A stretch of 51,775 bases of DNA from Escherichia phage vB_EcoP_06. The notes beneath the pieces were generated by a model, which searched no databases, was not told where the DNA came from, and worked only from the letters and a program-made list of their open reading frames with translations. Positions 40,631 through 42,859 of the stretch are shown one piece after another (position 1 is the first letter of the stretch; the number at the start of each line of letters is the position of its first letter). A program made the translations under genes and the position numbers. The stretch is from sequence record PP532814.1, one strand, 5' to 3'.

Positions 40631-40812
40631 TTGTCTACGTTGTTCACGGAGATATTTTCTACGATGGCGAATACTATGAGGGCGTTTTCAGTACGTTCGA
40701 ACAGGCGGAGCATCATGCAAAGAATCTTCCTGATTATTACGATAACGTAAAAGTCAGAGAATCAAAAATTGACGATCCAGCATACGAAGGTAACACATGG
40801 GATTTACGATGA
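40627..40812 (+). CDS. hypothetical protein (61 aa)
   Basis: Start overlaps previous stop. Confidence 0.35.
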   Translation: MIVYVVHGDIFYDGEYYEGVFSTFEQAEHHAKNLPDYYDNVKVRESKIDDPAYEGNTWDLR

Positions 40813-41351
40813 AAAAATACGAATTTGAACTTTGGGGCAGCAAATACCATTTTTCCACTAGCAAGCCGATTGTTATCGTTGACCTGGACGGAACGTTATC
40901 TGACGGATCGCATCGCTTACACCTTCTTCCGACAGAAGATTTGCACCTTACAGAAAGCTGGTCTGAGTTCAATAAGGCGGCTGTTGGCGATTCGCCGATT
41001 AAGAGCACGGTTGCAGTGGTTAACGGTTTGTGGATGTCAGGATTTGCCATCGTTATCCTGACCGGACGTAGCGACGAAGTGATGGCGGATACCTGCAAGT
41101 GGCTTAGTGAAAGCGGCGTCAAGTACGACGCGTTAATCATGCGCCGCAAGGAAGACAACCGCAAAGACACGATCATCAAAGAAGAAGTATTGCGCGCTAT
41201 TGGCCTGGACAACATTGTGTGCGCTTTTGATGATTCGCCTAACGTGGTTAAGCACTTCCGCAGCCTGGGAATCACAACCTATCAGGTAACGGAATATGAC
41301 AAGCCACATAATCATATCCAATCGCATGGCGTGGAGGAATTGCAGAAATGA
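40809..41351 (+). CDS. HAD-family phosphatase, T4 Pnk 3'-phosphatase-domain-like
   Basis: HAD motif I IVIVDLDGTLSD, motif II VILTGRSD, later MRRKEDNRKDTIIKEEV and AFDDSPNVV; recalled similarity to the T4 polynucleotide kinase phosphatase domain. Confidence 0.5.
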   Translation: MKKYEFELWGSKYHFSTSKPIVIVDLDGTLSDGSHRLHLLPTEDLHLTESWSEFNKAAVGDSPIKSTVAVVNGLWMSGFAIVILTGRSDEVMADTCKWLSESGVKYDALIMRRKEDNRKDTIIKEEVLRAIGLDNIVCAFDDSPNVVKHFRSLGITTYQVTEYDKPHNHIQSHGVEELQK

Positions 41352-41557
41352 TTCTGAAAGTAGCATATGCTAACCCTCGCGGCTGCAATATATACGGCTT
41401 TAAGGTTGGCGCGATGGTCAACGCCAGGATAAACGAAAAAGGCGTATTAGTTGTCAAGTCTCCTAAAACTGGCATGGATATGCGCATCAAGGAGAACGGA
41501 GGAAGATTGTTTATCAGGTCAATGACTGGTCAAACGCTCGCAACGTTCACCAAATAG
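41348..41557 (+). CDS. hypothetical protein (69 aa)
   Basis: Start overlaps previous stop. Confidence 0.35.
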   Translation: MILKVAYANPRGCNIYGFKVGAMVNARINEKGVLVVKSPKTGMDMRIKENGGRLFIRSMTGQTLATFTK

Positions 41558-41597
41558 CACTTTTTGCAAAAACAGATTGTCGGGCTTGCGGTATAGT
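41553..41597 (+). promoter_or_regulatory. phage promoter box variant + 18 bp + -10 TATAGT
   Basis: AATAGCACTTTTTGCAAAAAC then TATAGT. Confidence 0.5.
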
Positions 41598-41628
41598 AAG
41601 CCCATCGACAACAAACGAGGATTAAATC

Positions 41629-41892
41629 ATGGTTAATAAAGTTGAGTTTTTCAAAGCGGTAGACAAGATTGACGGCGCGCCAAGTTTCTTTGCTATCCAT
41701 TCCATTGACGGCGAAGACGTTGCATACAACGTGATTAGTCGAGACGGTATATCAAAACTTAGTGACCTGGTGGGTTATATTGTGGCGAACGGGAAATGTG
41801 CATGGCCCGATTCACCACGAGAGCCGCGCCGCCGCGACATGCAAAATCAAGTTCTGCTTTACACGCTGGTAATTGAAGGAGTCAACAAATGA
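41629..41892 (+). CDS. hypothetical protein (87 aa)
   Basis: Promoter box, -10 TATAGT and RBS CGAGGATTAAATC upstream. Confidence 0.4.
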   Translation: MVNKVEFFKAVDKIDGAPSFFAIHSIDGEDVAYNVISRDGISKLSDLVGYIVANGKCAWPDSPREPRRRDMQNQVLLYTLVIEGVNK

Positions 41893-42074
41893 TTTGGTTA
41901 CTTGTATTTTTAGTGGTTTTCTTTTATATTTCAGGTTTATTCATCTTCCGCGCATTGGTTAAAGAGTGTGATTGCACTGATAAAGATCAGCCTCTTGTTC
42001 TGATGTTCTGGTTTGTGTGGTTTTGGGTGGCGCTTTACCAGATTGTACGGGATGAAAGCGGCTTTAAGTGGTGA
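41889..42074 (+). CDS. hypothetical small membrane protein (61 aa)
   Basis: Two hydrophobic segments (WLLVFLVVFFYISGLFIF; LVLMFWFVWFWVALY). Confidence 0.35.
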   Translation: MIWLLVFLVVFFYISGLFIFRALVKECDCTDKDQPLVLMFWFVWFWVALYQIVRDESGFKW

Positions 42075-42268
42075 CTATTACTATAGCGCATTCATGCAGT
42101 GCGCTATGTTGAGATAACAACATGAGATCATGAAGATGCGAAACTTCGAAAAAATCGTATCCAAGAAGAAGCGATACAGCTACCACGAGCACCAAGAGAT
42201 GAATCAACGCTATCGCAATAAGCGCCAGCGCAAAGGTAAACATTCAAGCAGATATGGAGACAACTAAT

Positions 42269-42859
42269 ATGAAGCGAGACATTATCATCCTTAACGGACC
42301 GCCAGGAGTTGGCAAAGATACGCTTGCGGCATACTTAACGGGTAATCTTTACGCAGCGGTTAAAGCGTCGTTTAAACAGCCGATGTTTGATATTGCATTC
42401 TCCATGCTTGGCGTTTACAGATATGACGAGTTCATTGATCTGTATAACGACCGCGAGCAGAAAGAAAAGCCTCAAGCAATCTTGCAAGGCAAGTCTCCGC
42501 GACAATTCATGATTTGGATTAGTGAAGAAGTCATGAAGCCAGCTTTTGGCGAGCAATATTTTGGGAATCGCATGGTTGAGCAAGTACACGAGATGTGCAG
42601 AGATTTAGCTGTTGTAATTAGTGATGGAGGATTCCCTGAAGAAATCAAGCCGCTCGTTAAGGCAGGCCATGAAGTTCACATTTGCCGACTGCATCGCGAA
42701 GGATTCACGTTTGATGGCGATTCGCGAAACTATATTGACCTGAGCGGATACCATCACCGAGTCAAGCATTACGACTTCACAATGATTGATGGCGAGCCAG
42801 AAAAGACTGTTGACGAGATCATCAAAACTGTGCAGTGGAAACACACAAAGATTGAATAG
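42269..42859 (+). CDS. P-loop nucleotide kinase, dNMP-kinase-like
   Basis: Walker A ILNGPPGVGKDT; recalled resemblance to phage deoxynucleoside monophosphate kinases; RBS GGAGACAACTAAT before ATG 42269. Confidence 0.45.
   Translation: MKRDIIILNGPPGVGKDTLAAYLTGNLYAAVKASFKQPMFDIAFSMLGVYRYDEFIDLYNDREQKEKPQAILQGKSPRQFMIWISEEVMKPAFGEQYFGNRMVEQVHEMCRDLAVVISDGGFPEEIKPLVKAGHEVHICRLHREGFTFDGDSRNYIDLSGYHHRVKHYDFTMIDGEPEKTVDEIIKTVQWKHTKIE

Follow-up and report, generated by a model that had tools for sequence, protein, structure and literature searches.

A Pnk-type phosphatase and a gp1-like kinase in T1-like phages: evidence for a conserved module with a probable role in DNA-precursor salvage

Introduction

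T4 polynucleotide kinase (Pnk, or PseT) combines an N-terminal kinase domain with a C-terminal phosphatase domain (PDB 1ltq, 5uj0) and has an RNA ligase as its partner. Capnocytophaga gingivalis Pnkp1, a component of the Pnkp1–Rnl–Hen1 RNA repair complex (PDB 4xrp), likewise includes a kinase domain, and its partners are a ligase and Hen1. T4 gp1 is a deoxynucleoside monophosphate (dNMP) kinase (PDB 1dek). Here, we describe 2 plus-strand genes of Escherichia phage vB_EcoP_06 (PP532814.1), whose whole 51,775-nucleotide (nt) record is referred to as the window. These are a stand-alone Pnk-type HAD (DxDxT) phosphatase (40809–41351; HAD below) and a T4 gp1-like P-loop protein of the (d)NMP kinase family (42254–42859; the kinase below). 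There is strong support for the view that the 2 proteins act together as one conserved module, and the role that we favor for it is DNA-precursor (nucleotide) salvage.

The locus departs from each of these systems. Relative to T4 Pnk, the window HAD lacks the N-terminal kinase domain and the RNA ligase partner, and has in addition an insert of ~16 residues and a C-terminal tail. The kinase domain of C. gingivalis Pnkp1, its ligase, and Hen1 are all absent from the window. The window kinase is 17% identical to gp1 and lacks a gp1 insert of ~36 residues. Direct orthologs of both genes are found in Drexlerviridae, in the same order and on the same strand: the "kinase-phosphatase" and T1p62 of T1, Gp09 and Gp14 of TLS, and bas06_0071 and bas06_0076 of KarlJaspers. 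The closest database proteins are 96–98% identical, and the open reading frames (ORFs) of the spacer alone differ.

The pair is already known at the annotation level in T1-like phages, from the TLS, Sfin-1, and KanT1 papers. GenBank labels the HAD "polynucleotide kinase" or "kinase-phosphatase" and the kinase "ATP-binding protein," "P-loop NTPase," or "dNMP kinase." In the re-annotation of TLS, Gp09 is listed as a polynucleotide kinase and Gp14 as a dNMP kinase (PMC11447400). The Sfin-1 paper matches the protein to the phosphatase domain at the C terminus of T4 PNKP, which acts on DNA, RNA, and 3'-dNMPs. In the KanT1 paper, the 2 genes are noted to co-occur and are proposed to boost the supply of nucleotides (PMC13164509). 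The novelty implied in the sequence-only reading that first singled out the pair was thus overstated, as both genes have been annotated and discussed. What is new is the evidence for one module: conservation across phage families, overlap, and fusion. A literature search, which was not exhaustive, found no prior report of the cross-family conservation, the overlapped or fused forms, the paralogy in phage RB49, or the evidence for a gp1-like fold.

To judge from its sequences, the module appears to be an ordinary but mislabeled part of phage nucleotide metabolism. The correction has practical value: hundreds of records from Drexlerviridae and other phages say "polynucleotide kinase" or "5'-kinase/3'-phosphatase" despite the absent kinase domain, and the HAD in those records probably does not repair RNA. 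Moreover, a conserved module of a phosphatase and a gp1-like kinase is a concrete and cheap biochemical target.

The phosphatase: A stand-alone member of the Pnk type

The HAD gene encodes 180 residues from its likely start, ATG 40809, and 184 residues as the longest ORF, which begins at 40797. Residue numbers are counted from 40797; 4 is to be subtracted for the 40809 start. The ORF and the motifs named in the sequence-only reading are present on the plus strand: DLDGT (29–33), TGR (89–91), RKDTIIKEE (122–130), and DD (145–146). The reading had taken the protein for a Pnk phosphatase domain without its kinase, and profile searches agree far beyond chance. The protein matches Pfam HAD_PNKP (PF25109) at 79.2 bits against a gathering cut-off of 27.6 (E=4.5e-22; profile positions 3–140 of 143) and phrog_415 at E=3.7e-66; PF03767 also matches in Pfam. 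The hits among PDB sequences are C. gingivalis Pnkp1 and T4 Pnk, each in its phosphatase part only. Matches in PDB and PHROG alike cover the phosphatase halves only, and neither a P-loop nor a kinase domain is found in the 180–184-residue protein. In fold comparisons, the HAD is nearest to the Pnk phosphatase domains, with Pnkp1 and T4 Pnk as its nearest solved relatives, and the second-best match is a protein of the class B acid phosphatase type.

The catalytic residues can be followed in an alignment with T4 and RB49 Pnk. The motif I residues D29, D31, and T33 align with T4 D165, D167, and T169. All 3 are invariant in a set of 8 sequences, T4 and RB49 Pnk among them; in a 57-sequence alignment of the family, D29 and D31 again show no variation and T33 very little. 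Further, T89 of motif II aligns with S211, K128 of motif III with K258, D145–D146 of motif IV with D277–D278, R40 with R176, R91 with R213, and D124 with D254; the homolog in phage phiAS7 has Ala in place of R91. Mutagenesis by the Shuman laboratory reportedly found the Pnk-specific residues R176, R213, and D254 of T4 Pnk to be essential. The published roles are those of nucleophile and general acid/base for T4 D165 and D167, and of phosphate and Mg ligands for S211, K258, and D278; a mononucleotide, 3'-dTMP, is a routine assay substrate of the T4 Pnk phosphatase (PMC3592404). Because all the catalytic residues that were checked are kept, the HAD looks like a catalytically competent aspartyl-phosphate phosphatase of the Pnk type.

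Two features set the stand-alone family apart from T4 and RB49 Pnk, in which both are absent. One is the insert of ~16 residues after motif I (residues 41–57; window 40918–40968), with W55, F58, and N59 invariant in the family; the other is a conserved C-terminal tail (Y-D...S-H-G-V; window 41292–41351). Both are modeled at low confidence, the insert with a predicted local distance difference test score (pLDDT) of 45–55. The insert may form a small cap that restricts substrate size.

The kinase: A gp1-like protein

The sequence-only reading had placed a separate dNMP-kinase-like P-loop protein (GPPGVGKDT) about 1 kb downstream, and the kinase ORF indeed begins 902 nt past the HAD stop. It encodes 201 residues from 42254 and probably 196 from ATG 42269, the likelier start, as GGAG lies 8 nt upstream of it and most homologs begin with MKRD. 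The P-loop (G15-PPGVGKDT-23) is of the GxxxxGKDT type, with G20, K21, D22, and T23 invariant in 59 homologs. The assignment to a dNMP-kinase-like P-loop protein holds, and in PHROG the kinase matches phrog_139, "deoxynucleoside monophosphate kinase," at E=3.1e-51.

The link to gp1 emerged from a single search, the fold search, where gp1 is the closest solved structure; the matching predicted viral structures (BFVD) are mostly annotated as dNMP kinases. Sequence searches of PDB, with the single sequence or with a 59-sequence profile, returned generic P-loops only and missed 1dek. In a direct comparison by hhalign, the kinase aligns with gp1 over 73 columns (probability only 72%), with an L-x-GKSP motif common to both. 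A MAFFT alignment bridged by homologs from other phages aligns gp1 end to end with the kinase family, and places in common the GKDT P-loop, DRE, S-x-R-x-x-M, D124, and E130. The 2 differ in the rest of the P-loop (GVKRSGKDT in gp1, GPPGVGKDT in the window), in DTRQ versus DGGF, and in NDTH versus GDSR; GDSR contains R158, an invariant Arg of the kinase family. The kinase is a gp1-like protein of the nucleotide kinase family, with a dNMP as its putative acceptor.

A0A6J5RPH7, one of the BFVD matches, is a 297-residue protein from an uncultured phage that carries the annotation "nucleoside 2-deoxyribosyltransferase" and matches the gp1-like kinase fold over part of its length. Here, the kinase family may be joined to another domain for nucleotide salvage.

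The fold of the kinase bears directly on a rival explanation, under which the pair is a split or fused end-healing enzyme, a functional analog of T4 Pnk with a different kinase fold. The HAD would clear 3'-phosphates or 2',3'-cyclic phosphates, the kinase would phosphorylate 5'-OH ends of RNA or DNA, and a host ligase would seal them. The closest solved relatives of the HAD, its full set of catalytic residues, and the wide use of the label "polynucleotide kinase" for its family speak for such an enzyme, as does the tight coupling and natural fusion of the 2 activities described below, which mirrors the logic of bifunctional Pnk. The kinase itself fits poorly. Its hhalign alignment with T4 Pnk is limited to a 27-column P-loop region, and no similarity to polynucleotide 5'-hydroxyl kinases (the T4 Pnk N-domain, Clp1, the Trl1 kinase) was found beyond the P-loop. 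In addition, a counterpart of T4 Pnk D35, the general base, would be expected downstream of P-loop residue D22 and ahead of D124, and the 59-homolog alignment holds no invariant Asp in that stretch. The Escherichia coli RNA ligase RtcB joins 3'-P/5'-OH ends directly, and where it does so healing would bring no benefit.

Linkage: Conserved order, overlap, and fusion

Linkage was surveyed in 80 kinase-bearing IMG/VR loci, scanned with hidden Markov models built from both families. The HAD lies upstream of the kinase on the same strand in 70 of the 80, and the order is never reversed among these 70. When the kinases are clustered at 70% identity, 17 of the 20 clusters show the association, and the spacer ranges from −4 to ~2155 nt over the 70 loci. 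In T1, an HNH homing endonuclease alone separates the 2 genes. In Webervirus F20, they overlap by 4 nt and occupy a different region of the genome, flanked by a "DNA repair exonuclease" on one side and by the lysis genes on the other. The overlap of HAD and kinase is 8 nt in phiAS7, a podovirus (Autographiviridae) whose kinase is 49% identical to the one in the window.

A search of 1.84 billion representative proteins recovered 2 divergent natural fusions, P0257 (403 residues) and P0268 (461 residues), in each of which a HAD_PNKP domain at the N terminus is followed by a gp1-like kinase domain at the C terminus. They are 37% identical over their whole length and have a linker motif in common. 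The halves of P0257 are each 47–48% identical to the matching window protein; the fusion is encoded on 3 contigs, and the locus shown, on a contig of 60.8 kb, is phage-like.

The conserved order, the overlapping genes, and the natural fusions lend strong support to the sequence-only suggestion that the 2 proteins act together. Selection on the pairing, beyond inherited synteny, is indicated by the podovirus case, by the fusions, and by the fact that the pair has relocated as a unit.

Neighborhoods: The two families in other phages

Outside Drexlerviridae, both families sit in nucleotide-pool contexts. In RB49, a stand-alone HAD that is 44% identical to that of the window has a start overlapping the nrdB stop; in LIMEzero, the gene after the HAD encodes a dATP/dGTP diphosphohydrolase (a pyrophosphohydrolase) and was ruled out as a kinase homolog; and in Pbunavirus of Pseudomonas, thymidylate synthase and DNA polymerase flank a HAD fusion. 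Likewise, the kinase homolog is followed in the Escherichia vequintavirus naam by an NT5C 5'(3')-deoxynucleotidase, thymidylate synthase, and ribonucleotide reductase, lies upstream of a 5'-3' exonuclease in SU7, and falls between DNA ligase and dUTPase in phiA050.

The Pbunavirus fusion (locus L094, 2477–3493) belongs to phrog_4889, annotated "polynucleotide kinase/phosphorylase"; it consists of an N-terminal HAD_PNKP domain, an acidic linker, and a 128-residue C-terminal domain of unknown family and without a P-loop.

These neighborhoods bear on end healing as well. RB49 retains full-length pseT (Pnk) and rnlA (Rnl1) besides its stand-alone HAD. Since that HAD coexists with a complete Pnk, the stand-alone phosphatase is a paralog with its own role and no degenerate Pnk. 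The sequence-only reading had also reported that no ligase motif was nearby, and this holds: a K.DG scan of the window gave no ligase candidate, with matches only in structural proteins, an ORF in the primase region, and one unannotated ORF, and no ligase is annotated in the relative KarlJaspers. A tRNA scan found no tRNA genes in the window. Of the 2 roles offered in that reading, nucleotide salvage fits the neighborhoods well, and end healing, with the countering of anticodon nucleases as its example, fits poorly, given a gp1-like kinase, a window with neither ligase nor tRNA gene, a phage that has Pnk and Rnl1 in addition to the HAD, and partner genes elsewhere that encode nucleotide-pool enzymes. 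We regard end healing as unlikely, though as the likeliest of the rivals; if the substrates were polynucleotide ends, the pair would represent a new end-healing architecture.

The locus in naam brings in a further alternative. The pair could shape the nucleotide pool through opposing activities: the HAD, as a (deoxy)nucleotidase, would destroy certain dNMPs or unusable 3'-dNMPs, and the kinase would commit the wanted dNMPs, so that together they set the composition of the deoxynucleoside triphosphate (dNTP) pool and do not act in sequence. In naam (locus L008, 2998–4199), the kinase homolog overlaps the NT5C-type HAD gene that follows it, a second and independent pairing of this kinase with a HAD nucleotidase. 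The class B acid phosphatase type of the second-best fold match, the PF03767 match, and the insert missing from T4 and RB49 Pnk, which as a small cap could suit small substrates, point the same way; the insert, however, is modeled with low confidence, and it is less intuitive to fuse opposing enzymes than sequential ones. We consider this arrangement distinctly improbable.

A proposed route for DNA-precursor salvage

Salvage is favored, as the probable though by no means certain role, because the neighbors in other phages are nucleotide-pool enzymes and because the window contains neither a ligase nor a tRNA gene. The starting points are observations: the protein families and folds, the intact catalytic residues of the phosphatase, the genetic linkage, and the nucleotide-metabolism neighborhoods. 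We infer the substrates, the order of the 2 reactions, and the link to breakdown of host DNA. The phage would break down the host chromosome into deoxynucleotides, deoxynucleoside 3',5'-bisphosphates, or short oligonucleotides, and the HAD would probably strip the 3'-phosphates from these products. With ATP, the gp1-like kinase would convert the resulting 5'-dNMPs into deoxynucleoside diphosphates (dNDPs), and host Ndk would turn the dNDPs into dNTPs for phage DNA synthesis.

Several points weigh against this route. Most exonucleases yield 5'-dNMPs, for which no 3'-phosphatase is needed. The nearest solved relatives of the HAD are RNA and DNA end-healing enzymes. On the side of the kinase, no curated model in Pfam or NCBIfam scores above cut-off, and the Arg of the gp1 segment D170-T-R172 is replaced in the family, which has DGGF; for these reasons, the acceptor predicted from sequence could be other than a dNMP. 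The synteny sample is mostly Drexlerviridae, and part of the linkage therefore reflects common descent. Literature searches found no biochemical characterization of a member of either family. Finally, the phosphatase-to-kinase order of the fusions recalls mammalian PNKP.

Mammalian PNKP has the architecture FHA–phosphatase–kinase, and P0257 and P0268 resemble it in the order of phosphatase and kinase. Unlike PNKP, they have a gp1-like kinase domain, no FHA domain, and a neighborhood of phage nucleotide metabolism. Another reading is that the HAD and the kinase constitute an uncharacterized, bifunctional, convergent analog of Pnk, which relocates a phosphate from 3' to 5' or heals DNA ends; we hold this to be quite unlikely. 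In the relocation variant, 3'-dNMPs or Np ends would be dephosphorylated and the 5'-OH of the resulting deoxynucleosides or short oligonucleotides would then be phosphorylated. If so, these phages could recover what 3'-phosphate-forming nucleases release and E. coli is unable to reuse; if DNA ends were healed, it would be the first time that this kinase fold was seen to act on polynucleotides.

For salvage, the biology of T1-like phages supplies a setting. T1 and TLS are reported to break down host DNA and reuse its nucleotides, and the genes responsible are unidentified (PMC11447400). T1-like phages do without a DNA polymerase of their own, and no nuclease for host DNA has been identified in them. 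The module could explain how they turn the breakdown products of the host chromosome into dNTPs.

Locus layout and transcription context

The window is the essentially complete genome of a Drexlerviridae (T1-like) coliphage. The 4-kb region around the pair is 91–95% identical at the nucleotide level to its closest Drexlerviridae relatives, which among the matches listed include egaa, KarlJaspers (Bas06, Hanrivervirus), pSf-1, and slyngel. The pair lies in a co-directional cluster of small, mostly unannotated plus-strand ORFs (~37.4–46.3 kb), which a consensus scan bounds by a strong promoter-like site at 37405 and a terminator-like hairpin at 46306. For the plus strand from ~40.3 to 43.4 kb, the same scan listed no terminator-like site and only weak promoter-like matches, at 40349 and 41206.

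Upstream of the HAD, a small ORF (40627–40812, plus strand) encodes a DUF7336 protein (PF24024, E=3e-12), whose TGA stop overlaps ATG 40809 as ATGA, in support of that start. Because of this overlap and the lack of a terminator-like site in the region, the DUF7336 ORF and the phosphatase belong to the same transcription unit. Downstream, the spacer between the HAD and the kinase (41348–42267, plus strand) is filled by 4 small, lineage-specific ORFs of 69, 87, 61, and 45 residues. They have no informative Pfam match, their PHROG matches are weak and carry no function, and they stand outside the chemistry of the module.

The setting in a cluster of small, mostly unannotated ORFs is circumstantial evidence for a counter-defense role, in which the phosphatase, with or without the kinase, would remove or alter phosphorylated nucleotide or oligonucleotide signals sensed by host immunity. 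Also circumstantial is the report that the defense protein ApeA is activated by 5'-phosphorylated deoxydinucleotides, perhaps derived from degradation of host DNA (bioRxiv 10.64898/2026.01.26.701840). The same paper names no phosphatase and no Drexlerviridae; no defense-related neighbors or family matches were seen, and the conserved neighbors are nucleotide-metabolism genes. Counter-defense is highly improbable. A retron Eco2 paper was also considered as a link and set aside, as the polynucleotide kinase there is only a reagent.

Additional observations

Two of the spacer ORFs have features of their own. The 61-residue product of 41889–42074 (plus strand) is hydrophobic, contains Cys, and looks membrane-embedded; JLBYU09 has a "FeoB-associated Cys-rich membrane protein" annotated somewhere in the matched 4-kb region, which may correspond to this ORF. 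The 45-residue product of 42130–42267 (plus strand) is very basic, and its match to T7 protein 1.1 is weak and falls below threshold. Further upstream, the ORF at 39448–40335 (plus strand) encodes 295 residues that match phrog_7116, of unknown function, in 2 stretches. An internal duplication is visible by eye, Pfam assigns no family, and relatives conserve the protein, annotated as hypothetical.

Elsewhere in the window, the ORF at 28317–29429 (plus strand) encodes a 370-residue protein with an N-terminal helix–turn–helix (HTH). Pfam reports HTH_28 only, and motifs like those of metallophosphoesterases are visible by eye (GD..H, GNHD, GH, GHWHH). The protein is 63% identical to F20 gp19, the "DNA repair exonuclease" directly after which the Webervirus pair lies. 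The HAD is preceded in phiAS7 by a 322-residue Metallophos protein and in LIMEzero by a 325-residue protein with only HTH matches. BLAST found no similarity between the 28317–29429 protein and the phiAS7 Metallophos protein, and the idea of a 3-gene module was dropped.

Close homologs of window 39400–43400 are also held by 20 to 39 "Campylobacter phage" records (host C. jejuni) and by the 49-kb record "Streptococcus phage MBBL140"; these records are probably mislabeled or contaminant Drexlerviridae genomes.

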